A stretch of DNA of 63,502 nt, counting the filler. It is 4 parts of 4 records of this genome, joined end to end, with 100 filler letters (N's around TTAATTAATTAA, not from the genome) between each part and the next. Parts side by side here need not be neighbours in the genome. Positions count along the whole stretch, not along the records: positions 1 to 25,968 come from SRR20825019_504; 3 more parts are not named here. One strand, written 5' to 3'. The stretch's first letter is position 1. Each line of letters starts with the position of its first letter. Under the pieces are notes generated by a model, which worked only from the letters and a program-made list of their open reading frames with translations, was not told where the DNA came from and ran no database searches. The position numbers were made by a program, and so were the translations under genes. Positions 16,796-54,159 of this stretch are shown one piece after another.

Positions 16796-17272
16796 ATGAA
16801 ATCGCCCATGGCTTCCCGTGCCAGTGCCCCGCCGCAAGGATTCACCTTGGTCGAGATCATGGTGGTCGTTACGATCATCGGATTGCTCGCTGCGATCGCG
16901 GTCCCCGCTCTCCAACGTGTGCAGCGTCGCGCGCAAAACAGCCGCTTCGTCAGCGATCTTAGCACCTACACTCAGGCGTTCGAGACCTACGCCATGGAGC
17001 GCGGAGTCTGGCCCCCCAATGCCGGCAGCGGCCAAATTCCCGCTCCGCTGGTCGGAGAGATCGCCAACAAGTGGACCAGCCCCAACACTCTCGGGGGCGA
17101 ATGGAATTGGGATTACAACCGACTCGGCATCCAAGGTGGCATCGCCACCACCGGCGTCACGGCCTCCGCCTCACAAATGGTCGAGATCGATGCGATGATC
17201 GACGATGGCGATGTCAGCACCGGCAGCTTCCGGCTCTTTGGCACGCGCTACATCCTCGTGCTCGAAGAGTAG
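16796..17272 (+). CDS. Prepilin-type N-terminal cleavage/methylation protein (type IV pilin/pseudopilin)
   Basis: QGFTLVEIMVVVTIIGLLAAIAVP and a C-terminal IDAMIDDG. Confidence 0.92.
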   Translation: MKSPMASRASAPPQGFTLVEIMVVVTIIGLLAAIAVPALQRVQRRAQNSRFVSDLSTYTQAFETYAMERGVWPPNAGSGQIPAPLVGEIANKWTSPNTLGGEWNWDYNRLGIQGGIATTGVTASASQMVEIDAMIDDGDVSTGSFRLFGTRYILVLEE

Positions 17273-17281
17273 GGCGGCCAT

Positions 17282-17776
17282 TCACACTTCGATCACGGGA
17301 AGGCTCGCCATCAACTCCCGCGGGGAATGCTGGATAATGATATCCGCCTGCGGGTCATCCTTTCGAAGATTCGCGCGCTGTTCTTCCATCGCCTGCGTGA
17401 GAAGCGTCATGCATTCCGAACGAAACTCCGCGGCATTCTTTCCGCGAAAGGCCAATTTGATCGTCTTCCGGCTCACCACATCCGACATCCCTTTCCGCGT
17501 GTCACGCACCGTGAGGTCCGCGTGAAACGTGTGTCGACCGACAAACGGAATCAACGGATCGGTGATGTGCACCGAGGCCTCAATCAGATAGGCGTGTTTC
17601 GGTGCAAAGGCGTGCTGAGTGACCCGATAAACCAGCCATCCCACCATGATGACTGCCACGGCCACAAACACCCACGTGAGATCCAACGTGATCCGACTCA
17701 ACGACAGACCACCTACGACCAATGCCACAATCAGCGTCGCGAGAATCCACCAGGGAAGTGCTTTAAAAAAGGACAT
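17282..17776 (-). CDS. Hypothetical membrane protein
   Basis: Two N-terminal TM helices followed by a soluble domain. Confidence 0.65.
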   Translation of the reverse strand: MSFFKALPWWILATLIVALVVGGLSLSRITLDLTWVFVAVAVIMVGWLVYRVTQHAFAPKHAYLIEASVHITDPLIPFVGRHTFHADLTVRDTRKGMSDVVSRKTIKLAFRGKNAAEFRSECMTLLTQAMEEQRANLRKDDPQADIIIQHSPRELMASLPVIEV

Positions 17777-17977
17777 GAGTGAGTTGCCCCGGCTTGATTC
17801 GGACGGGCGCATCGATAGCCAACCGACCATTGCGGTTCTCCGCAAGCATCGGAATCACCCATCGATTTGCCAATCCACCCAAGTCACTCATCGTGCTCCT
17901 ATCCGCTGGGCATTAAAGATCGCCCCAATCACATCTGACGTGCAACTTTCCACCACTTTCGTGAGTCTTAGACACTA

Positions 17978-18232
17978 ATGGGGTTATTCCGCTTTATTCT
18001 TACCGCCTTATTCGGGCTCTTCGCCATCGTCGCCGGACTCTTTGCCGCGCTGCTCGTCGCCATCACCGGGATCATCGCCGCGCTCTTCGGAGGCCCCCGA
18101 CAGAAACGCCCGATTCGCCGTCCCGCCTCCGCCCAGCGTCCCCAAGCACAATCCCGTCCCCGGGAATCACGCCATGTCGATTCCGACGTGATCGACGTCG
18201 ATGCCAGCGAAGTGGAAAGCGAGAAGCGGTAA
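17978..18232 (+). CDS. Small membrane protein
   Basis: Hydrophobic N-terminus, then a basic linker and a C-terminal DVIDVDA motif. Confidence 0.75.
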   Translation: MGLFRFILTALFGLFAIVAGLFAALLVAITGIIAALFGGPRQKRPIRRPASAQRPQAQSRPRESRHVDSDVIDVDASEVESEKR

Positions 18233-18370
18233 GCGTTAGCGGGAAGCTGTAAGACGTAAGCGGGAAGCGGGAAGGGGTAAGCGCTAAGCAGTCAGCGAAC
18301 AGCGGTCAGCACTACGCCGGAAGCTATCAGCTGTCAGCCGATAAGCTTTAAGCGATCAGCTCTCAGCAAA
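18223..18370 (+). repeat. Degenerate heptamer tandem array (nnnAAGC/nnTCAGC)
   Basis: gaagcggtaagcgttagcgggaagctgtaag...tcagc, with 7-nt period. Confidence 0.85.
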
Positions 18371-18415
18371 CAGAAGGTAGGTCGAAGCGCGTGTCCTTTC
18401 CTAGCTTCAAGCGAC

Positions 18416-18567
18416 GAAGGATCCCCGGTGACGTAGCGCGGTAGCGCGGAGATGGTGCTCTGCTGACGAGCAGAGTGCCCCGGAGGGGTGACAAAGCGGG
18501 TGCCCTTATGGGCTGCTGCGAAACAACCGTTCGATGTTTTGCGTGTAGTCACCTGGATTCATCCTTC
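18416..18567 (+). ncRNA. Candidate structured RNA or ssDNA multi-hairpin element
   Basis: Closing stem GGATCCCCGGTGAC/GTCACCTGGATTC encloses four internal hairpins. The G-U pairs favour the + strand. Confidence 0.45.
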
Positions 18568-18603
18568 TTGCTACTTCATTCACCCTTCTAACTTTTTCCT
18601 TCC

Positions 18604-19092
18604 TCATTCTTCCTTTCCATCCCGTCCGAATCCCCAGGAAAACGAGGCCTTGAATTTTTCCGTGCCGCCGATCCGCACGCCGTGAAACATCGTCTCGGCC
18701 ATCTCGGTTGATCCGAGCAGACGCGCGACATCGATCATCAATTCCGCATCCGCGATCAGTCGCTCGACTTCCTCGCCCGGATAGCCCGCCCAGTATTTTA
18801 GATCGTGCAGGAATCCGGCGGGGTAGAGGCTCACGCCATTCCACGTGTCGAACCAACCCGTGACACCGTCGCTCTTGAACGGCTGGACCGGAGGATCGCG
18901 TTCGATCTTCTGCCAGAGTGATTCCAGTCCGTAGGCCAGACAGATCTTCTTGATTTCTTCCAACGACACTTCCTCCCCAATCGCCGGTAGTTCAATGCCG
19001 GGCTCCTGTGAAGTCAAAGCTGACTCAGTCGCTTTCACCGCCGGAGCGACGAGCAACAAGCCGAACAGGAATCTTAGATTATTGAATTTCAT
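18604..19092 (-). CDS. Secreted protein, prokaryotic phospholipase A2/DUF1353-like
   Basis: Signal peptide; SDG...FLHDLKYWAG...RLIADAEL...MFHGVRIGG...WGFG. Confidence 0.6.
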   Translation of the reverse strand: MKFNNLRFLFGLLLVAPAVKATESALTSQEPGIELPAIGEEVSLEEIKKICLAYGLESLWQKIERDPPVQPFKSDGVTGWFDTWNGVSLYPAGFLHDLKYWAGYPGEEVERLIADAELMIDVARLLGSTEMAETMFHGVRIGGTEKFKASFSWGFGRDGKEE

Positions 19093-19169
19093 GAGTCGGT
19101 GCATTACCGCGGCTCACCCAGATTTCACAGATACGGCCCTCCGCTTCGAGGAAATAGCGATCTACTCAA

Positions 19170-19260
19170 TGCCAACCGCCCATTGCCGACAACCTTCCGC
19201 TTACCGCTGATTGCTTAAAGCTTATAGCTGACCGCTTTCCGCCTATCGCTTATCCCTTAA
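19170..19260 (-). repeat. Heptamer array, reverse orientation (GCTTnnn)
   Basis: ccgcttaccgctgattgcttaaagcttatagctgaccgctttcc. Confidence 0.8.
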
Positions 19261-20353
19261 ACCTACGGCTTACCCCATCCCTCAGCTCTTCCACGATAGC
19301 GGACAGCGCCGACTCAGCCTGGAGCAGATTTCGAGTCATCCCCAGCGCGAGACCGGATTTACGATCCGCGAAGGCCATCGAGCCGCCGTGTCCGCCATGA
19401 CCGAACGCCTGATCCAGATCCGGCATATTCGCTTGAACCACTCCAAGCGCGTAGCCCAAGGCAAAAGGATCGGGCTCTTCGTCGCTCGGCGAATCAGGGA
19501 GGGGGATATGCTTCGTGGCCAGATCAACCCGTTCGGGCGAGAGTAAAGTCACTCCATCAATTCCCTCCGGCAGCAGCGCGGCATAGTGCTTCGCAATCGC
19601 CCGGGCCGAGGCCACGCCACTCCCGGCGGGTAAACAGGCGCGACGCCCTTCGTCCAAATTCATCCAATGTCCCAGCGGAAGCAGCGCCGGCGGCGTCACC
19701 ATCGGCCCACCATCATTCTCGGGCATCACGAATTCCGGTTCCTCCAGCCAGGCAATCGAATGTTTCTCAGGATGCGGCATCCCCAGAAACAAATCCGTCA
19801 GCCCCAGAGGCTCGCTCACGATTTCCCGCAGAAGCACCTCGGGCATCCGCCCGGTCACGCGACGCGCCACTTCGCCCAAAATCCACCCATAGGTGAGTCC
19901 ATGATATTCGCAGCGTGTGCCCGGTTCCCATTCCAGCGGACACGCCGCCACGATAGCACAAATCCGTTCCCAATTGAGCGTGTCGGCCCGCGTTGTCTCC
20001 CGGGGAATTTTTGTCACTCCCGCGCGATGCCGCAGCACCTGTTCCACGGTAACCGCTTCTTTGCCCTGTGTCCCAAACTCAGGCCACAGCTCGGCCACGC
20101 GCGTTTCATACGAAAAAAGTCCTCGATCCACCAACTGATGGATCACGGTTGCAAACAATCCCTTTGAAATCGAGAAGACGGGGAAGAGCGTTGTTCCGTT
20201 GACCGCAGCTCCCGTGCGCTCATCCGCGACACCGGCCCACGCATTCACGATCAACTCCCCGTGCAGATAGGCCGCCACCTGGATCCCACGCTCGCATCCG
20301 TCGGTGCAAAGACGATCAAGGAGCGATTGGATGCGGGATTGAATATCAGCCAT
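19250..20353 (-). CDS. Serine hydrolase, beta-lactamase/EstA (class C-like) family
   Basis: FSISKG (SxxK), YHGLTYG, FGHGGHGG. Confidence 0.92.
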   Translation of the reverse strand: MADIQSRIQSLLDRLCTDGCERGIQVAAYLHGELIVNAWAGVADERTGAAVNGTTLFPVFSISKGLFATVIHQLVDRGLFSYETRVAELWPEFGTQGKEAVTVEQVLRHRAGVTKIPRETTRADTLNWERICAIVAACPLEWEPGTRCEYHGLTYGWILGEVARRVTGRMPEVLLREIVSEPLGLTDLFLGMPHPEKHSIAWLEEPEFVMPENDGGPMVTPPALLPLGHWMNLDEGRRACLPAGSGVASARAIAKHYAALLPEGIDGVTLLSPERVDLATKHIPLPDSPSDEEPDPFALGYALGVVQANMPDLDQAFGHGGHGGSMAFADRKSGLALGMTRNLLQAESALSAIVEELRDGVSRRFKG

Positions 20354-20355
20354 GG

Positions 20356-20697
20356 CAGTAAGCTTTAGGCGGTCAGCGCTAAGTGGGAAGTGTTAAGCGG
20401 AAAGCCCTAAGCTTTAAGCTCTGAGCTTTTAGCTGTTAGGAGCATGGCTGCCGTTTATCTTCACAGCCTTTTCACCCCGTAGGCCGTCTGCTTGCAGACG
20501 CATCGGCCTGTTCGCGCGAGCACGCTCGCAGCCTACTTGTTAAGCGTTAGGGTGTCAGCGGTAAGGTTTAAGCGATAAGGCGTAAGCTGGTGAGCGAGAA
20601 GCGGTAAGCCGTAAGGTGAAAAGCGATCAGCCATAAGTGGGAAGCTTTTAGCCGTAAGCGATCAGCATTCAGCCGTAAGCGATCAGTATTCAGCTGT
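20356..20697 (+). repeat. Two heptamer arrays (20356-20440, 20538-20697) around a REP doublet (20479-20536)
   Basis: 7-nt periodic AAGC/CAGC units; GTAGGCCGTCTGCTTGCAGAC...GCGAGCACGCTCGCAGCCTAC. Confidence 0.85.
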
Positions 20698-20852
20698 AGT
20701 GATTTCTAATTGCCGCAAAAAGACTCATAAGTCGCAAAATCGGTCAGGCCCAATGATCAGGCACCCGCGCTTCGTCATCCTTCTGCCTTTTTATTTCCCC
20801 CTTCTTCCCTTGCCGCGATCTTCGCGGGCAGCCACAAACGTCGCCTATTTTC

Positions 20853-21695
20853 ATGTCTGTAATCACTTCCCAGCTCCAATCCCTCGCCGTTGATCTCATT
20901 GATATTTACGGCGGCACTCAAACCCGCGTCGCCACGAGTGATGACGCGATCGAAAGCTACGCCGATGAGATGGAGCGGGGCGCCGTCTTTCCGCCCATCA
21001 CCGTCTTCTACGACGGATCGAAACACTGGCTCGCCGATGGCTTTCATCGTCTGCTCGCCGTGAAGCGCAATCAGGGGGAAGAGATTTCCGCCGAGGTCCG
21101 GGCAGGCAGTCGCACCGATGCACTGCGATTCGCACTCGGAGCCAACGCGACCAACGGACTCTACCGCACCAATGCCGATAAACGAAACGTCGCCGATATC
21201 GCCCTCCGCGAATGGCCCGATCTCTCCAATGCCCTTATCGCCGAGGTCTGCAAGGTCTCCGGCGAACTCGTCCGCAACGTGCGCAAGGACCTCACCCAGA
21301 AAGGCGAGATCGCGAAAGCCGAGATCGTCACCGGACGCGACGGCAAGGAATACAACGTTGGCATCGAGCGTCAGCCCCGCGGCAAGGCCGAGGGCTCTTC
21401 CGCAGAGGAAGGCGGTTCGGGCGCCGGACAGGGCAGTGGTCCCGGCAAGGGCAAAGCGGAAATGGGCGCGCCCGGCGGCGCGATCAAAGAACTCGAAATG
21501 GAGGCGCGTTCGATGATCCGCAAAGGCGAAATGAATCCCTTCGAATTGCCCACGCTTCTGACGGCAACCGGACACGATTACGCCGCGACTGTCATCACCT
21601 TGCTCGAAGGCATGAAACCCGAAATCAAAGACCGCACCGAAGCGCTCGAGCGCCTCCAACGTTGGATCGAGAAAGCGTTGGCGCAGAATGCGTAG
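20853..21695 (+). CDS. ParB/Srx N-terminal-domain protein with HTH (orphan, StrR-like)
   Basis: FPPITV...LADGFHRLLA, ANATNGL, HTH SNALIAEVCKVSGELVRNVR, GRDGKEY. Confidence 0.8.
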   Translation: MSVITSQLQSLAVDLIDIYGGTQTRVATSDDAIESYADEMERGAVFPPITVFYDGSKHWLADGFHRLLAVKRNQGEEISAEVRAGSRTDALRFALGANATNGLYRTNADKRNVADIALREWPDLSNALIAEVCKVSGELVRNVRKDLTQKGEIAKAEIVTGRDGKEYNVGIERQPRGKAEGSSAEEGGSGAGQGSGPGKGKAEMGAPGGAIKELEMEARSMIRKGEMNPFELPTLLTATGHDYAATVITLLEGMKPEIKDRTEALERLQRWIEKALAQNA

Positions 21696-21990
21696 GGGTA
21701 GGCGTTAAGCGGTAGGCGGTAAGCAGAAAGCGGTAAGTTTGAAGCTTTGAGCTCTGAGCTCTGAGCGATCAGCCTTCAGCGATCAGCAGTCAGCTATACG
21801 AGGTAGGGCGAAGCGTGTGTCCTCTCAAAGCTTCAAGCCACGGCTCTTCTAAAGCATATCGCTTATTGCCTACTGCTTATAGCTTTCGGCTTATAGCTTA
21901 TAGCTTACGGCTTATAGCTTAAGGCTTATCACTTATCGGCTTACCGCTTCCACCTTACCGCTTAGAGCTTAAGGCTTAAAGCTTACCGCT
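21696..21990. repeat. Inverted pair of heptamer arrays (21696-21796 AAGC; 21851-21990 GCTT) around a conserved 41-nt motif
   Basis: gcttacg gcttata gcttaag gcttatc... units. The motif at 21802-21842 matches 18376-18416. Confidence 0.85.
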
Positions 21991-21999
21991 CGTGGCCTT

Positions 22000-22158
22000 C
22001 TAACACGGCTGATGGCCCCAGTCGTCTTCCTTGAGCTGTTCCGCAAATTTCTCCATCTGCTCTTCCGGGGTCAGTTCATTGACGGGTTTCACGACACCTT
22101 CGGAATCCGTCGTTTCCTTTTCCGGGTCCGAATCAGGCGATGGAGGTGAGTCGCTCAT
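22000..22158 (-). CDS. Unannotated 52-aa acidic small protein ending DDWGHQPC
   Basis: Manual translation: MSDSPPSPDSDPEKETTDSEGVVKPVNELTPEEQMEKFAEQLKEDDWGHQPC*. ATG to TAG, with host-like codons, filling the only non-repeat space. Confidence 0.7.
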   Translation of the reverse strand: MSDSPPSPDSDPEKETTDSEGVVKPVNELTPEEQMEKFAEQLKEDDWGHQPC

Positions 22159-22191
22159 GGATCCGAAAGTTAGGGCAATTTATTAAATGTG

Positions 22192-22474
22192 GAAAGCTGG
22201 AAAGCGATATGCGGTAAGGGATAAGCAGTAAGCTGTAAGCTGGTGAGTAGTCAGCGATCAGCTATCAGCTTTAAGCGATAAGCGGGAAGCTCTGAGCGAT
22301 CAGCTTTCTTCCTTTTCTCGACGTAGGCCGTCTGCTTGCAGACCCATCGCCTGACCGCGCGAGCAAGCTCGCCGCCTACAAGCTCAGGCTCTAATATATT
22401 AGCGCCAATGAGCGAAGATTAGCGGTTAAAAAATCTCTGCCTCGCGGCACTACTCACTACTCACTGCTCGCTAC
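22192..22474. repeat. Heptamer array, REP doublet (22323-22379), nonamer repeat and CTACTCA heptamers
   Basis: Seen directly. The REP doublet is nearly identical to 20479-20536. Confidence 0.8.
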
Positions 22475-23230
22475 TCACTTGATCTCCAACAACTCCACTT
22501 CGAAGATCAGCGCGGATTGGGCCGGGATTGTCGGACGTGTCTGCGGGCCATAGGCGAGATTAGCCGGCACGTAGAGTTTCCATTTGTCGCCGACCGACAT
22601 CAGCTGCAGGGCTTCGGTCCAGCCGGGAATCACACCGGTGACCGGAAATTCGATGGGCTCGCCACGACTGACCGAGCTGTCGAAGACCGCGCCGTCGATC
22701 AGCGTGCCATGATAGTGCACCTTGACCGTGTTCTCCGTGGTCGCTTTCGGACCGGAGCCGGATTCGACCACTTCGTATTGCAGACCCGAATCGGTCACGG
22801 TGACGCCGGGGCGCTGTTTGTTCGCTTCCAAAAACGCATTACCCGCGGCGAGATTCTTTTCGCCTTCCTGGGCCATGATGGCCGCGACCTTCTCCTGCAC
22901 GGCCATAAATGCCGCACGGATGTCCTCTTCGTTGATCTGTGGTTCCGCCTGGTTCAACGAGTCCATCAACCCGGCCGTCAGCGCCGCTTGATCGATATCG
23001 AGTCCTTTCTGGGAAGCCATGTCCCGGCCGATATTAAAACCGATCCCGTAGCTCACCTTCTTCTCATCGGTCGAAAAATCGACGTCACCGGAAGTCGCGG
23101 CCGTCTTGGGAGCCGTCGTCTTCGCATCGCTCTTGGATTCGTTTTTACTGCACGCCGTGAACAACAGAGCAAAGGCCGCAAGCGCGATCGTGAGAGAGGA
23201 ACGGGAAAAGGGGGAGGGTTTAGTCATCAT
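22475..23230 (-). CDS. FKBP-type peptidyl-prolyl isomerase (FkpA/Mip-like lipoprotein)
   Basis: LLFTAC lipobox, KVSYGIG, TDSGLQY, VHYHGTLIDGAVFDSS, VIPGWTEAL, LIFEVELLEI. Confidence 0.95.
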   Translation of the reverse strand: MMTKPSPFSRSSLTIALAAFALLFTACSKNESKSDAKTTAPKTAATSGDVDFSTDEKKVSYGIGFNIGRDMASQKGLDIDQAALTAGLMDSLNQAEPQINEEDIRAAFMAVQEKVAAIMAQEGEKNLAAGNAFLEANKQRPGVTVTDSGLQYEVVESGSGPKATTENTVKVHYHGTLIDGAVFDSSVSRGEPIEFPVTGVIPGWTEALQLMSVGDKWKLYVPANLAYGPQTRPTIPAQSALIFEVELLEIK

Positions 23231-23269
23231 GGGAAAGCGACATGCAGAATTGTCCGGAGGTTCCTTGCA

Positions 23270-23365
23270 AGCGGGAAGGGTGAAAGGATAAGCCAAAAGC
23301 GATAAGCTGTAAGCTATCAGTAATAAGCCGTAAGCAGTAGGCGCTAAGCTTTCAGCTTTCAGCCA
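23270..23365 (+). repeat. Heptamer array (AAGC) upstream of the FKBP start
   Basis: gataagccaaaagcgataagctgtaagctatcag... Confidence 0.8.
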
Positions 23366-23534
23366 TTCAGAAGAGATTGCCGCAATAAGGCGCGAAAATC
23401 GCAATAAGGTTTACCCCGAAGGCACGAAGCGATGGTGGGTGCGGTTGTCCCTAACCGCACTTTGAGTCTCACCACGAAACGTTGGTTGTCACGATGGTCG
23501 CCGCATACTGCTTATCACTTATTGCTTAAAGCAT

Positions 23535-23695
23535 CTTAACGAAAATGAGTGCCCATTAGTGTCCATTAGCGGTGAAAAACAATCCTGCCTCACGGTGTAT
23601 CGGAATACGTATTTCAACGCGGAGTGCGCGGAGAACGCGAAGGATAGGAGTTTTCTAAGCCAGTGAGCATTAGCGTAGAGTGGTGGTGAAAACTC
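23535..23695. repeat. 8- to 10-mer repeat arms (CCATTAGTGTCCATTAGCGGTG; AACGCGGAGTGCGCGGAGAACGCGAAG)
   Basis: Short degenerate tandem units seen directly. Confidence 0.6.
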
Positions 23696-23699
23696 CCAC

Positions 23700-24170
23700 T
23701 CAGAGCCTCCTGATCCTCGTGGTAATATTCGAGGACTGAATTTCAAGGATACTGAAATACAGCACCGCTTTGAGTCCTCTCGAATCTTTCCACGTCTTCA
23801 CGTCCTGACTCTGGTAGTCCTTGCGCCAATCCGAGCCATAAGTGGCGAGGGCAGCCTCAATCCGTTCCGCCCGCCAGTGGGCCGGAACCTCCAATTGCAC
23901 CGCAATCAGAGTGAGCGAAGGCCGAGCGAAAATCGCCCGCACATGCAAATGGCCGTGATAAAATTCACGGACGCTGAATCGCCCCTTTAGTTTCACCATG
24001 CCGTGCTTTTCATGCAGACTGTTCACCTCCCTAACATTCTGTGCCACACTCGGGTCGCCGTAACGATCGACGAAGTAGTCGGGCGTGCGTTGGATGAAAT
24101 TCGGCTCTTCCGCTTGCGCGGTTTGAACCAGCGCAAAACTCAGAATTGTCATGAGAACTCGGAGCAGCAT
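23700..24170 (-). CDS. Hypothetical secreted protein
   Basis: Signal-peptide-like start (MLLRVL...AQA), about 156 aa. Confidence 0.6.
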   Translation of the reverse strand: MLLRVLMTILSFALVQTAQAEEPNFIQRTPDYFVDRYGDPSVAQNVREVNSLHEKHGMVKLKGRFSVREFYHGHLHVRAIFARPSLTLIAVQLEVPAHWRAERIEAALATYGSDWRKDYQSQDVKTWKDSRGLKAVLYFSILEIQSSNITTRIRRL

Positions 24171-24267
24171 GGGGGGTAGAGGGTATCGCAAAAACTCGAA
24201 CGAAAGTTTACAGGCATACCATGGAGACGCTGCCGAACAAGCAGAACCCATCCAACTCAACCGAACT

Positions 24268-24951
24268 TCACGCAATCAGCAGCAATCGCGGCTGATTGCG
24301 TTGCGTCGCCGGGGCGCGGTGGATGCAGGGGAGGACCGGACTGCCGGGGAATTGGGTCGCGATGCGCCAGAGATTGAATCGTCCGAAGGAGTAAGGCTTT
24401 GCCTCGGGTTTTGCGGCGTAGTGCAGATCGTAACAGCACTCGCTCAGGTAAGTCGCAAAGTCAGCATCATCCGCTCCGCCATATTCCGCCAAAAGGACTG
24501 CGCGGGTTTCAGGAATAGCCACGCGACGGATCGCTTCCACATTCGGGAGGCCTTCGGAAGGCGATCCGGCATAACTGCACAGCCACGTATCGGCCTCGAC
24601 CGTCGCGCTGTCCACATGCCAGGAAAACACATCCGTCGGCACCGCTCCGGCCTCCTCATCCCGCGGATAACCATGAATGCAGTTCAGCACCGGATCGAGT
24701 TCGCGGGCCTTCAAGCTCCGCAGATCCGAGAGCATCGCCTCGCGGGCGATGACGCCCTCCGGACTCAATGACAGCGAGAGCAGGGTGGCCTCATCCAATG
24801 TGCGCACGCCATCGCCATCACCGAGCGCTGACACGACTTCATTAAAGTCACCGTCCAAGTTGCGTTCCCAGCACAGCGCATTCACGCCATCCGAGAAAGG
24901 AGTCGCGACGAGCTCGGCAAAGCTATGGACGGTTTTGAATGAAAAAGGCAC
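24268..24951 (-). CDS. DUF1826-like protein (HxD...H-R, possible 2OG-Fe(II)-like fold)
   Basis: WHVD...WLCSYAG...CIHRAP...PRLLLI. Confidence 0.7.
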   Translation of the reverse strand: MPFSFKTVHSFAELVATPFSDGVNALCWERNLDGDFNEVVSALGDGDGVRTLDEATLLSLSLSPEGVIAREAMLSDLRSLKARELDPVLNCIHGYPRDEEAGAVPTDVFSWHVDSATVEADTWLCSYAGSPSEGLPNVEAIRRVAIPETRAVLLAEYGGADDADFATYLSECCYDLHYAAKPEAKPYSFGRFNLWRIATQFPGSPVLPCIHRAPATQRNQPRLLLIA

Positions 24952-24959
24952 GGATTGAG

Positions 24960-25160
24960 CAAGTAAGAAGTATGAAAGAGGAGTGATGAAGTGTCCCGGC
25001 CGAACAGTCGCAGGCTTAAAACCAAAAAGAGATTAAACCACTACTAATCTTCGCTCATTGTCGCTCATTGGAATACCTGTTCTCACGCGGAGACGCCGAG
25101 ACGCGGAGATGATAAATAGGGGACTTAATTTGGAACTCAGAAAAGCTGGAAACCAGCAAA
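24960..25160. repeat. Stack of short-period repeat arms
   Basis: GAAGTATGAAAG; CTAATCTTCGCTCATTG; CACGCGGAGACGCCGAGACGCGGAG; GGAACTCAGAAAAGCTGGAAA. Confidence 0.65.
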
Positions 25161-25186
25161 ACCACCGATCTTACAAAATCTGAAAC

Positions 25187-25968
25187 TTAATCTTCGACAT
25201 CGCGGCAGACTGCGTCGAGTTGCCGGGCGATGAGGTCGATTTGATCGCCGGTCAGTTCCACTTGGCCGCGCCCTTTAATCGCAGTGGCGAGGTTCTTGGA
25301 ATTCTGAACATTGACGGGGCCACGCGCGGTGGTCTTCACATACCAACCGGGAAGGGCGAGCATCGGTTTAGCGGTAATCGAATGACCCGTCAGTTTATGA
25401 ATCCATTTAGTAAGCCACTCGGCTTCCTTCTGAGCTTGTTTCAAACCATGCCTATCTTCGGCCCAAGGCCAAATCAACTGGGTGCCATCGTAAGTGACCT
25501 CGTGATCTTTGAACCCGGGACGCGTCCGGCCTTTGCGGCGAGTCTTGCTTTCGATTAAAAACAGGCCAGTGGGTCCAACCACAACATGATCGAGATTGAA
25601 TTTCCGATCACCATTGGCTGCGGGAATATCATGAAATACTCGATAACCTTGGGAGAGGAGGGACTCGAGTGATTCACCCACCGTCCGTTCGCCCATATAT
25701 CCGAGTTCATAGTTTTCTATGATGAGTAATCTTCGCTGAATCCAAACCACGCCGATAGCAGCACAAAGCAGTAAGCAACCAGTCAGAATCACTAATGCTA
25801 AGCCCAGAGTCATGTCGGGTGCAGTTCTGGAAAGTATCAAGATGACCACACAGACAACGGCCAGCGGAGTTAACAAAGCACCAAGAAGATGAAACGATAG
25901 GTTCTCCTCTAGCTTGGATATTTTTTTTCGCAATGACTCCCCGGGAGCACGCAGAAGTTTAAACTCTA
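25187..25968 (-). CDS. Membrane-anchored NERD-domain (nuclease-related) protein, 5'-truncated at the contig end
   Basis: GYMGERTVGESL, VFHDIP, NLDHVVVGPTGLFLIESK. The frame stays open (EFKLLRAPGESLR) to the gap. Confidence 0.88.
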
Positions 25969-26068
25969 NNNNNNNNNNNNNNNNNNNNNNNNNNNNNNNN
26001 NNNNNNNNNNNNTTAATTAATTAANNNNNNNNNNNNNNNNNNNNNNNNNNNNNNNNNNNNNNNNNNNN
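25969..26068. other. Artificial contig linker (N44-TTAATTAATTAA-N44)
   Basis: All-frame stop spacer, identical at three places. Confidence 0.98.
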
Positions 26069-31436: not shown

Positions 31437-31536
31437 NNNNNNNNNNNNNNNNNNNNNNNNNNNNNNNNNNNNNNNNNNNNTTAATTAATTAANNNNNNNN
31501 NNNNNNNNNNNNNNNNNNNNNNNNNNNNNNNNNNNN
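31437..31536. other. Artificial contig linker
   Basis: N44-TTAATTAATTAA-N44. Confidence 0.98.
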
Positions 31537-54059: not shown

Positions 54060-54159
54060 NNNNNNNNNNNNNNNNNNNNNNNNNNNNNNNNNNNNNNNNN
54101 NNNTTAATTAATTAANNNNNNNNNNNNNNNNNNNNNNNNNNNNNNNNNNNNNNNNNNNN
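54060..54159. other. Artificial contig linker
   Basis: N44-TTAATTAATTAA-N44. Confidence 0.98.

Follow-up and report, generated by a model that had tools for sequence, protein, structure and literature searches.

The tandem heptamer arrays lying between 18.2 and 23.5 kb of the window (the whole 63,502-nt stretch of DNA that was analysed, made of four contigs with N/TTAATTAATTAA spacers between them) are most probably the arms of four selfish-looking, hairpin-type insertion elements, E1 to E4, of a class that carries a four-helix-bundle gene in its full form. Among the readings offered in an earlier note on this DNA, that of "empty arms of a mobile cassette" describes the arrays best. Their anatomy, their fixed polarity and, in relatives, their link to four-helix-bundle genes are directly observed. 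In each element, a heptamer arm of the AGC type would be followed by a loop and then by an arm of the GCT type, an arrangement that would be strand-symmetric, and E1 to E4 would have colonised each spacer of a string of mostly - strand genes in the first contig (contig A).

All the arrays named in the earlier note are present, at coordinates that match or are off by at most about 30 nt, and its count of eight is raised to ten by two additional - strand arrays, A9 and A10 (Table 1), the latter of the AGTAGYG type. A scan of the window for AGC at period 7 over four units yielded 31 matches, all of them within 18280-23314 and none elsewhere in the window, compared with a mean of 0.01 in 100 dinucleotide shuffles, none of which (0/100) reached 31. 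Arrays are limited to contig A (1-25968). The array unit, T-[A/C]-A-G-C-N-N, combines a conserved pentamer with a free dinucleotide after it, with base frequencies over 125 units of 0.80 for T, 0.70 for A or 0.22 for C, 0.94 for A, 0.99 for G and 0.87 for C, followed by the 2 variable positions, the values at positions 3-5 being inflated because the units were anchored on AGC. Seven irregular spacings occur among the 125 parsed units. TRF assigned the window arrays a period of 7 with 63-94% matches, the units being degenerate and not copies of one word, and also returned super-periods of 14 and 21 nt. Seven of the ten window arms measure at least 81 nt, and those of G341 and G047, two unrelated genomes of Verrucomicrobiota in which arrays of this type also occur, are far shorter (about 25-60 nt). 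A further genome, G001, matches the window at 97-98% over 31569-54059, on a different contig, and shows only weak paralogue matches in 1-25000, which makes it uninformative for contig A; arrays were found in 0 of 19 genomes of its genus.

Table 1. Features of the array-bearing region of contig A (18.2-23.5 kb), in window coordinates.
Feature	Position	Strand	Remarks
A1, left (AGC-type) arm of E1	18210..18372	+	Its opening units supply the final codons and the TAA stop of + gene 17978-18232 (84 aa)
Loop of E1	18373..19187	.	Module D9 (18375-18416), dispersed module (18429-18491), 166-aa ORF
Signal-peptide ORF, 166 aa, in E1 loop	18604-19104	-	Absent from the gene list of the earlier note
A2, right arm of E1 (GCT-type on +)	19188..19268	-	Overlaps stop of the - hydrolase
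Serine hydrolase gene (Pfam Beta-lactamase family)	19250..20353	-	Host gene between E1 and E2
A3, left arm of E2, first part	20356..20441	+	2 nt from hydrolase start codon
REP-like doublet copy 1 (D10/D11)	20479..20536	.	Two inverted GTAGG-headed short hairpins; separates A3 from A4
A4, left arm of E2, second part	20538..20700	+	
Module D12 copy 1	20709..20737	+	After arm A4
280-aa ORF inside E2	20853..21695	+	ParB-like N-terminal motif, no family match
A5, left arm of E2 inner hairpin	21690..21800	+	Includes TAG stop of 280-aa ORF
Module D9 copy 2	21801..21842	+	86% identical to 18375-18416; loop of A5/A6 hairpin
A6, right arm of E2	21851..21997	-	Begins 2-3 nt past stop of the - 52-aa ORF
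52-aa ORF	22000-22158	-	Between arms A6 (E2) and A7 (E3)
A7, left arm of E3	22192..22306	+	34 nt upstream of 52-aa ORF start
REP-like doublet copy 2	22323..22379	.	Matches copy 1 at about 88% identity
A10, right arm of E3	22446..22480	-	Second heptamer type, AGTAGYG (- strand); overlaps FKBP stop
FKBP-type isomerase gene, lipoprotein-like signal	22475..23230	-	Host gene between E3 and E4
A8, left arm of E4	23262..23366	+	31 nt upstream of FKBP start
Module D12 copy 2	23376..23404	+	After arm A8
A9, short right arm of E4	23500..23534	-	

Inverted period-7 arm pairs enclose a loop four times in the window (A1/A2, A5/A6, A7/A10 and A8/A9). E2 is a composite, and the parse given here is one among several possible. 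The hydrolase and the 52-aa ORF, each described in the earlier note as bracketed by mutually complementary arms, are not contained in one cassette, and each lies between two neighbouring elements. Ordinary genes are found in two of the window loops, and none was seen in the loops of relatives. The "ParB" label previously given to the 280-aa ORF is weak: its N-terminal motif is ParB-like, but Pfam gave no match at E<=5 and NCBIfam only the Noc N-terminal region, with an E of 0.02, far under the cut-off. Homologues of the hydrolase were recovered at six loci in genome contigs (best 45% identical) and at 15 loci in metagenome contigs (best 51%), and no period-7 array was found beside any of these 6 and 15 loci; none of them represents a close relative.

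The orientation of the arrays follows the ends of the neighbouring genes. The earlier note stated that every array abutting a stop codon reads AAGC on the mRNA of that gene, and all five stop-touching arrays of the window are indeed sense with respect to the gene that ends there, namely the + 84-aa gene (18210), the - hydrolase (19188), the + 280-aa ORF (21690), the - 52-aa ORF (21851) and the - FKBP gene (22446). The array at 23500 is sense too, but lies 166 nt away from the stop at 23700. The companion claim, that arrays just upstream of a start read the complement, stands for the three arrays situated at most 35 nt upstream of a start (20356, 22192 and 23262), all antisense, but not for two farther ones, since array 19188 is sense at 84 nt upstream of the - 166-aa ORF and array 20538 is sense with 152 nt between it and the downstream + gene at 20853.

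The same polarity recurs genome-wide in G341 and G047, with gene ends taken from our own crude ORF/GC3 gene calls: the two genomes together have 26 sense vs 2 antisense arrays at stops, and 16 antisense vs 4 sense at starts. The 37 unambiguous arrays of G341 include 14 sense and 2 antisense at stops and 9 antisense and 4 sense at starts, its six minority cases all having a second label or deriving from over-extended starts; the 25 arrays of G047 include 12 sense and 0 antisense at stops, and 7 antisense and 0 sense at starts. Counting as pairs neighbouring arrays on opposite strands with at most 300 nt between them, the AGC arm precedes the GCT arm in 14 inverted pairs (10 in G341, 3 in G047 and 1 in the window), vs 1 pair of the reverse order (0, 0 and 1, respectively). 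This sole exception surrounds the 52-aa ORF and is formed by arms of two different elements. Two further G341 pairs were spotted by eye. An element made of an AGC arm, a loop and a GCT arm is the same on both strands, and therefore presents AGC after the stop of the upstream gene and GCT before the start of the downstream gene. Thus, the facing rule at gene ends results from hairpin geometry, that is, from inverted pairs of fixed polarity, and this strand-symmetric geometry makes the orientation-aware propagation suggested earlier unnecessary.

The statement in the earlier note that similar arms flank TIGR02436-like genes in other genomes held when tested in relatives. G341, G047 and G371 together have 18 TIGR02436 genes that pass the cut-off, and 12 of these are flanked by cognate inverted arms of period 7, with scores beyond the 99th percentile of the non-cognate pairs; TAAGC, TCAGC and GTAGCGA are among the arm types. 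The full form of the class would accordingly be a TIGR02436 / 23S-rRNA-IVS-type gene between period-7 arms, and the window copies would be forms without the gene. As the same note had remarked, no such gene is present here: a profile search of all four contigs gave a best E of 6, no TIGR02436/PF05635 gene or remnant being found in the window with a model that recovered 8/8 held-out positives, and NCBIfam returned no TIGR02436 match on 8 local ORFs. As the window copies have no four-helix-bundle gene, it is by their architecture that they would belong to the cassette class, and they are filed as gene-less relatives of four-helix-bundle cassettes, not as cassettes.

Empty sites in relatives demonstrate that elements of this kind insert at stop-start junctions. 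One G341 junction was compared across 16 loci by means of the coding anchors common to them. In nine of these loci the anchors are separated by a mere 19-68 nt, without hairpin, whereas six carry hairpins with as many arm sets (TAAGC, AAGCGCG/AAGACGC, GTAGCGA, TCAGC, a GTAGG palindrome and a composite), and the remaining one holds an unrelated small gene. The upstream stop falls inside the first arm unit in the four heptamer-armed filled sites, and an ATG follows the last arm unit in all six filled sites. A larger gap at this junction, that of G462:C109, is occupied by a small Cys-rich ORF of an unrelated kind and not by a four-helix-bundle gene.

These data bear on the proposal that the arrays are plain intergenic heptanucleotide SSRs of the STRR type, made and kept in place by replication slippage, with incidental hairpins and no element identity. 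Heptamer SSRs are over-represented in the intergenic DNA of many bacteria (PMC4692102, PMC4679880); the super-periods of 14 and 21 nt are consistent with block slippage, and AGC-phase arrays occur in 100 of 401 sampled Verrucomicrobiota genomes, many of them as perfect tandem repeats. However, slippage alone gives no account of the 14 to 1 inverted pairing, and it leaves unexplained the conservation of a pentamer core next to two free positions, the presence or absence of entire hairpins with genome-specific arms at one junction, and the cognate arms at 12 of 18 four-helix-bundle genes, so that we consider this proposal unlikely. In the insertion elements favoured here, slippage would have a narrower role, with arms of T[A/C]AGCNN units growing through slippage of 7-, 14- and 21-nt blocks.

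The segment 21690-21999, described earlier as a long imperfect hairpin, does fold as such (-128.1 kcal/mol, z -4.07, 0/100 shuffles as good), and the mean fold z-score was -3.7 for eleven G341 hairpins vs -1.6 for 25 array-free spacers. Folding stronger than that of shuffles and control spacers, together with the strict placement of arrays at stops and starts, would also suit host-serving RNA stems, intercistronic or in 3'-UTRs, which would end or attenuate transcription, make the upstream mRNA more stable or adjust how the following gene is translated, and which would owe their persistence to selection instead of selfish spread. In line with this, some single sense arrays of G341 are followed by a GC hairpin and a T-run (L043, L046; by inspection), and REP/BIME elements of E. 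coli have terminator-, stability- and translation-type effects on mRNA. Nevertheless, the junction is empty in 9/16 relatives, where inspection places the stop and the start 0-15 nt from each other, so that the genes can do without the element. No T-run is present in the arrays, inspection detected no GC stem with a T-run (intrinsic terminator) after the right arms of the window, Rfam yielded nothing at E<=1 in 17000-25500, and arm pairing is not cognate-specific. A host function of this kind thus appears improbable, slightly more so than slippage. Complementarity was not higher between cognate arms than between non-cognate ones of like type (local scores of 15.1 vs 17.2 and 17.7 vs 18.0): pairing is generic and stems from the shared pentamer, and it lends no specific support to the mRNA looping formerly proposed. 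Local alignment was used for this comparison instead of duplex energy on 180-nt flanks, which was non-discriminating, as sequences of high GC content pair over their full length. Nothing points to selection for a specific stem. The sense RNA was less stable than the antisense in 10/11 G341 hairpins, but array-free controls lean likewise (26/40), and the sense and antisense z-scores showed no consistent difference.

DNA-level binding arrays for an oligomeric protein (heptad iteron or centromere-like), with the ParB-like protein encoded between two arrays as one candidate, are very improbable, since, despite a 7-bp period and conserved core like those of heptad operator arrays such as that of the omega protein of pSM19035, same-type arrays sit at operon junctions throughout G341 and G047 (array positions alone counted), the orientation rule follows gene ends, which points to RNA or element geometry, and the 280-aa ORF has no family match. 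HutP-like NAG-N4 RNA binding is another candidate likeness for the arrays.

As insertion elements, E1 to E4 would exert their effects at the RNA level. The transcript would fold into a stem joining the upstream stop and the downstream start at its base, RNase III may cut this stem, as in the 23S IVS, and host tolerance of the insertion would follow from such folding or cutting. A more speculative extension, to which we give little credence at present, is that of an RNA-level mobile element, in which RNase III would excise the stem from operon transcripts and an Avd-like four-helix-bundle protein, encoded by full-length copies, would bind the period-7 arms and recruit a reverse transcriptase or nuclease, through which the hairpin would be copied into further stop-start junctions; copies without the gene, such as E1 to E4, would be its non-autonomous passengers. 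If true, it would provide a function for the free-standing TIGR02436 family ("four helix bundle / 23S IVS protein"), for which we know of no role, and would explain the commonness of intergenic heptamer repeats in bacteria.

The nearest known counterparts of the elements are the ORF-bearing 23S rRNA intervening sequence (IVS) and heptamer repeats of the STRR type. In the 23S IVS of Coxiella burnetii, an S23p ORF is accompanied by tandem GACAGAT heptamers of variable number, and RNase III cuts at the first heptamer repeat (PMC4990558). The elements share with this IVS a long stem formed by complementary ends, a variable number of tandem heptamers on the 5' side, a four-helix-bundle gene (S23p, PF05635/TIGR02436) in the loop of the full form, and a selfish character, the insertion being tolerated by the host although its site is transcribed and essential. 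In contrast to the IVS, the window elements lie between protein genes and not in rRNA, their copies are without the S23p gene, their arms extend over 35-163 nt vs a few repeats, and the RNase III excision that is proven for the IVS would only be predicted for them.

Reports of intergenic heptamer repeats in many bacteria, including the cyanobacterial intergenic heptanucleotide repeats termed STRR, go back decades, to our knowledge without an accepted explanation. The arrays resemble them in their 7-nt tandem units, their intergenic location near starts or stops, their lineage-specific units and the occasional inverted pairs, but differ in having degenerate units with a fixed pentamer and a free dinucleotide, in forming inverted pairs with one polarity, and in being tied to a cassette gene in relatives. 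Other intergenic heptanucleotide repeats have the units TAACTGA (PMC4679880) and GGGAATC (PMC4692102), and a literature search found no published description of such heptamer arrays in Verrucomicrobiota. In this phylum, as represented by the window and its relatives, the repeats appear as the arms of discrete hairpin insertions of one fixed polarity, located exactly between a stop and the next start, and the same arms enclose four-helix-bundle genes. A vague repeat class thereby becomes an element with testable predictions, namely RNase III cutting, binding of the arms by the four-helix-bundle protein, and translational coupling kept across the stem. For annotation, it accounts for odd C-terminal tails, stops supplied by the repeat, and genes without room for a ribosome-binding site.

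The loops would be made up of short conserved modules, with a REP-like GTAGG doublet present twice and an ordinary gene in two of the loops. GTAGG heads occur in the window at 20479 (+), 20536 (-), 22323 (+) and 22379 (-), forming short imperfect GC palindromes arranged as inverted doublets, and a GTAG head is the defining mark of REPs. The likeness to REP/BIME/REPIN systems with their RAYT (Y1) transposases concerns these loop modules, which are extragenic, palindromic, present on several contigs and made of inverted GTAGG-headed GC hairpins, and excludes the heptamer arms. GTAGG heads were rejected as a general partner of the arrays: in the window the two are strongly associated, but heads adjoin only 3 of 37 arrays in G341 and 2 of 25 in G047, with about 1 expected in each, a weak enrichment. 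The DNA run containing contig A has loop modules of about 90% identity on further contigs, and copies about 90% identical to the REP-like doublets are found in two more contigs of run X2 and in one of X3. Very similar GTAGG hairpins flank Y1_Tnp genes in genomes of related phyla, the Y1_Tnp genes of G449, G047, G341 and G371 being flanked by GTAGG- or GTAGC-headed hairpins.

Searching for AGC at a period of 7 nt over four units returned 31 matches, every one of them within 18280-23314, where shuffled sequences predict 0.01. A looser scan of the whole window found no array outside this region. Thus, the heptamer arrays reported in an earlier note are not a product of chance, but ten of them (A1-A10), instead of eight, were found. 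Among 125 parsed units the consensus was T (0.80), A/C (0.70/0.22), A (0.94), G (0.99), C (0.87), N, N, the values at positions 3-5 being inflated by the anchoring of units on AGC. The last two positions span 16 dinucleotides, so that each unit joins a conserved pentamer to a freely varying dinucleotide and the set cannot be read as a single word in decay. In several arms, AAGC units at the outer end give way to CAGC or GAGC units toward the loop; from outer to loop end, the AAGC to CAGC/GAGC ratio shifts from 8:0 to 3:7 in A1, from 3:0 to 0:7 in A5, and from 5:0 to 3:5 in A7. The TRF output for the arrays includes 14- and 21-nt periods, which are the mark of block slippage.

Heptamer arrays and associated features on the first contig; modules named in the last column lie straight after the array
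Feature	Position	Strand	Remark
A1	18210-18372	+	module D9
60-nt module	18429-18491		
8-nt direct repeat	18433-18449		GTAGCGCG, two copies
166-aa ORF	18604-19104		signal peptide
A2	19188-19268	-	
Serine hydrolase gene	19250-20353	-	
A3	20356-20441	+	doublet D10/D11
A4	20538-20700	+	module D12
A5	21690-21800	+	module D9
A6	21851-21997	-	
52-aa ORF	22000-22158	-	acidic; no family hit
A7	22192-22306	+	doublet D10/D11
A10	22446-22480	-	second unit type (AGTAGYG on -, CACTACT on +); overlaps FKBP stop
A8	23262-23366	+	module D12
A9	23500-23534	-	
NERD-domain protein gene	25187-25933	-	at the extreme end of the contig, which breaks just past it

All arrays are confined to the first (contig A, 1-25968) of the four contigs that make up the 63.5-kb window, the contigs being separated by N runs around TTAATTAATTAA at 25969-26068, 31437-31536, and 54060-54159. 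Contig A encodes, among others, a sulfatase, a BNR/GDSL protein, a prepilin-type N-methyl protein, a sigma-54 activator, and the hydrolase, whose closest relatives (45% identity) are found among Verrucomicrobiota MAGs. The nearest genome compared, G001, is 97-98% identical to the window over 31569-54059, in the third contig (31537-54059), and matched neither contig 1 nor contig 2 at the DNA level except for weak paralogue hits. As none of the 19 genomes of its genus carries AGC-phase arrays, G001 is no guide to contig A. The fourth contig (54160-63502) has 31-34% GC and a GC3 near 0.2, and the assembly may mix organisms. In a sample of 401 genomes of the Verrucomicrobiota, the phylum of the best relative of the hydrolase, 100 carry one or more AGC-phase arrays of five units; the reversed control pattern, CGA at period 7, was also common, indicating that many unit families exist. 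Some genomes (e.g., G312, G428, and G412) have several hundred matches to this control, more than to AGC, so that other heptamer families dominate other Verrucomicrobiota. Many of the arrays in the phylum repeat one word exactly, AGCATTC or AGCCACT for example; the degenerate TAAGCNN/TCAGCNN type of the window is present in the genomes G341 and G047, and the word family of A10, as GTAGCGA, builds arms in both of these and in G462.

The arrays are not randomly oriented with respect to genes. In the window, all five arrays touching a stop codon (A1, A2, A5, A6, and A10) are in sense, the stop itself being part of an array unit in A1, A2, and A5, and A9 is likewise in sense at 166 nt from its stop, while the three arrays located at most 35 nt upstream of a start (A3, A7, and A8) are antisense. 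Sense arrays also precede the 166-aa ORF, overlooked in the earlier note (A2, 84 nt), and a 280-aa ORF (A4, 152 nt). Because so few cases could reflect luck, the rule was tested around array seeds in 24 loci of G341 and 20 of G047, with genes called by a crude ORF-plus-GC3 rule devised for this analysis. G341 yielded 37 unambiguous arrays (10 self-complementary ones were set aside), with 14 sense and two antisense placements at stops, nine antisense and four sense placements at starts, eight inside called ORFs, and five without a neighbour within range; all six minority cases carried a second label or an over-extended start call. The 25 unambiguous arrays of G047 (six set aside) gave 12 sense and no antisense at stops, seven antisense and no sense at starts, one inside a called ORF, and five without a neighbour within range. 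The proposed rule, AAGC in sense at stops and its complement before starts, was therefore borne out in two independent genomes.

This rule had been attributed to an orientation-aware propagation or RNA-folding system; orientation sensing is not needed to explain it. Opposite-strand neighbours at most 300 nt apart follow the order AGC-then-GCT 10 times in G341, three in G047, and once in the window, whereas the reverse order appears in neither genome and once in the window, in A6/A7, which are arms of two different elements flanking the 52-aa ORF. Two apparently single arrays of G341 (L036 and L045) proved to be pairs when inspected, and at L043 and L046 a sense array is followed by a GC hairpin with a T-run. 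An AGC arm-loop-GCT arm unit reads identically on both strands, so that any gene ending at it sees AGC past its stop and any gene beginning after it sees GCT before its start. Thus, element geometry suffices for the rule, and what does need explanation is the presence of only one of the two possible polarities. The window was accordingly parsed into four elements, each with its left arm on the + strand and its right arm on the - strand: E1 (A1, a loop with D9 and the 166-aa ORF, A2), E2 (A3, D10/D11 doublet, A4, D12, 280-aa ORF, A5, D9, A6), E3 (A7, doublet, further loop sequence, A10), and E4 (A8, D12, further loop sequence, A9). E2 is composite, and this parse is one of several possible ones. 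Three genes lie between elements and none of them inside: the hydrolase, the FKBP gene, and the 52-aa ORF. The complementary arms noted earlier around the hydrolase and the small ORF thus belong to neighbouring elements and not to one cassette. The 52-aa ORF, exactly between A6 and A7, could be either a genuine small gene or a reading frame within element sequence.

In the Verrucomicrobiota genomes compared, the elements are discrete arm-loop-arm insertions of a single polarity that sit precisely at stop-start junctions, and those of the window are probably insertions too. In G341, hairpins occupy the short gaps that separate co-directional genes; their 5' arm begins at or includes the stop, and their 3' arm ends a few bases before the next ATG. 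A comparison with empty sites was carried out at one such junction, L029, with orthologues from the family of G341 (16 loci). Nine loci have just 19-68 nt between the same coding anchors, vs. 139 nt in G341, and in five of these the stop-ATG distance ranges, by inspection, from 14 nt to overlap. Six loci are filled, each by its own arm set: TAAGC arms in G341, AAGCGCG/AAGACGC arms in G439, GTAGCGA arms in G462, TCAGC arms in G215, a GTAGG...CCTAC palindrome in G449, and in G436 a composite of 300 nt whose outer arms enclose a GTAGGGCGAG palindrome. The remaining locus is a second copy in G462 with an unrelated Cys-rich small ORF. In all four heptamer-armed sites the first arm unit includes the upstream stop. 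Different hairpins have thus independently colonised one tightly coupled junction, which is short in nine loci and filled with differing arms in six. Relatives of the hydrolase locus in genome and metagenome collections did not exceed 51% identity, and those found lacked arrays. The ATG of genes following a right arm lies 2-15 nt past the last unit, after C-rich sequence with no space for a Shine-Dalgarno site (window 20353-20356; G341 L029, L035, L037, and L048).

When folded, 21690-21999 formed a single extended, imperfect stem with an energy of -128.1 kcal/mol and a z-score of -4.07, which none of 100 shuffles equalled, in agreement with the hairpin noted earlier for A5 and A6. Eleven G341 hairpins had a mean z of -3.7 (range -1.1 to -6.6), compared with -1.6 for 25 array-free co-directional spacers. 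Cognate arms had no advantage over non-cognate arms of the same type in local alignment (15.1 vs. 17.2 and 17.7 vs. 18.0) or in duplex energy. The pairing is thus generic, and the stem consists of 5-bp helices from the shared pentamer with 2x2 mismatches between them; no compensatory fit between arms was seen. The sense RNA was less stable than the antisense in 10 of the 11 hairpins, but 26 of 40 controls showed a similar bias and z-scores were not separated, so that the difference carries little weight.

The arm types of these insertions are common to cassettes carrying four-helix-bundle genes (TIGR02436/PF05635), as the earlier note had stated for other genomes. G341, G047, and G371 contain 19 TIGR02436 matches, 18 over the cut-off, and for each of these 18 genes the 180 nt upstream were compared with the reverse complement of the 180 nt downstream. 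The cognate score exceeded the 99th percentile of non-cognate pairs in 12, one of them borderline; in two of the six misses, arms lay just beyond the scanned flanks. The arms are locus-specific period-7 words, including TAAGC, TCAGC, and GTAGCGA. A model built from ten of these proteins recovered 8 of 8 held-out genes and found no match in any window contig (best E 6), confirming that the window holds gene-less forms only.

Cyanobacterial STRR sequences are intergenic heptamer repeats, a kind long known without explanation. Beggiatoaceae, cyanobacteria, and Bacteroidetes have TAACTGA repeats (PMC4679880), and GGGAATC repeats and heptamer over-representation have also been described (PMC4692102). 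The 23S rRNA IVS of Coxiella is a selfish element of 428 nt that carries an S23p ORF and is excised by RNase III with the 5' cut at the first repeat; its tandem GACAGAT heptamers differ in copy number among strains (PMC4990558). PF05635 proteins are likened to the DGR accessory protein Avd (PMC10053308). In a literature search covering few subscription journals, neither polar heptamer-armed hairpins at operon junctions nor a tie of such hairpins to free-standing four-helix-bundle genes was found described. The element class can be placed between STRR-type repeats, IVS, and REP; in the window its members are densely packed, lack the gene, and have unusually long arms. Of the earlier interpretation, arms of a mobile cassette are retained and orientation sensing is not. 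We propose that the arms would pair within the operon transcript and set the upstream stop beside the downstream start at the stem base, so that a junction tightly coupled before insertion could still work; the stem might be trimmed by RNase III, by analogy with the IVS, and arms may lengthen through slippage.

The loops contain three short modules, each in two copies and always straight after a left arm. Copies about 90% identical occur on other contigs of a DNA run containing contig A, identifying them as dispersed repeats; the 60-nt module likewise has copies of about 90% identity on further contigs of runs X2 and X3, and the 8-nt direct repeat in it runs on into a small hairpin. The D10/D11 module consists of two short GC hairpins, each headed by GTAGG, in inverted orientation; its first copy divides an otherwise single long + arm (A3 plus A4). 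A Y1_Tnp gene flanked by such headed hairpins is the hallmark of REP/RAYT systems, and in G449, G047, G341, and G371 closely similar hairpins headed by GTAGG or GTAGC lie on either side of Y1_Tnp (RAYT-like) genes. GTAGG heads stand beside three of eight arrays in the window by script, against 0.04 expected per array, and are weakly enriched elsewhere (3 of 37 in G341, 2 of 25 in G047). The GTAGG hairpins and the arrays are treated as two selfish hairpin kinds nested in the same safe sites and not as one system. In G449 (loci L157 on C15 and L142 on C1), one Y1_Tnp gene has at least seven flanking GTAGGAGC(C/T)TG(C/T)TT(G/A)CA(G/A)GCGA hairpins, and a sister-REP doublet fills the gene junction that bears heptamer hairpins in G341, G215, G439, and G462.
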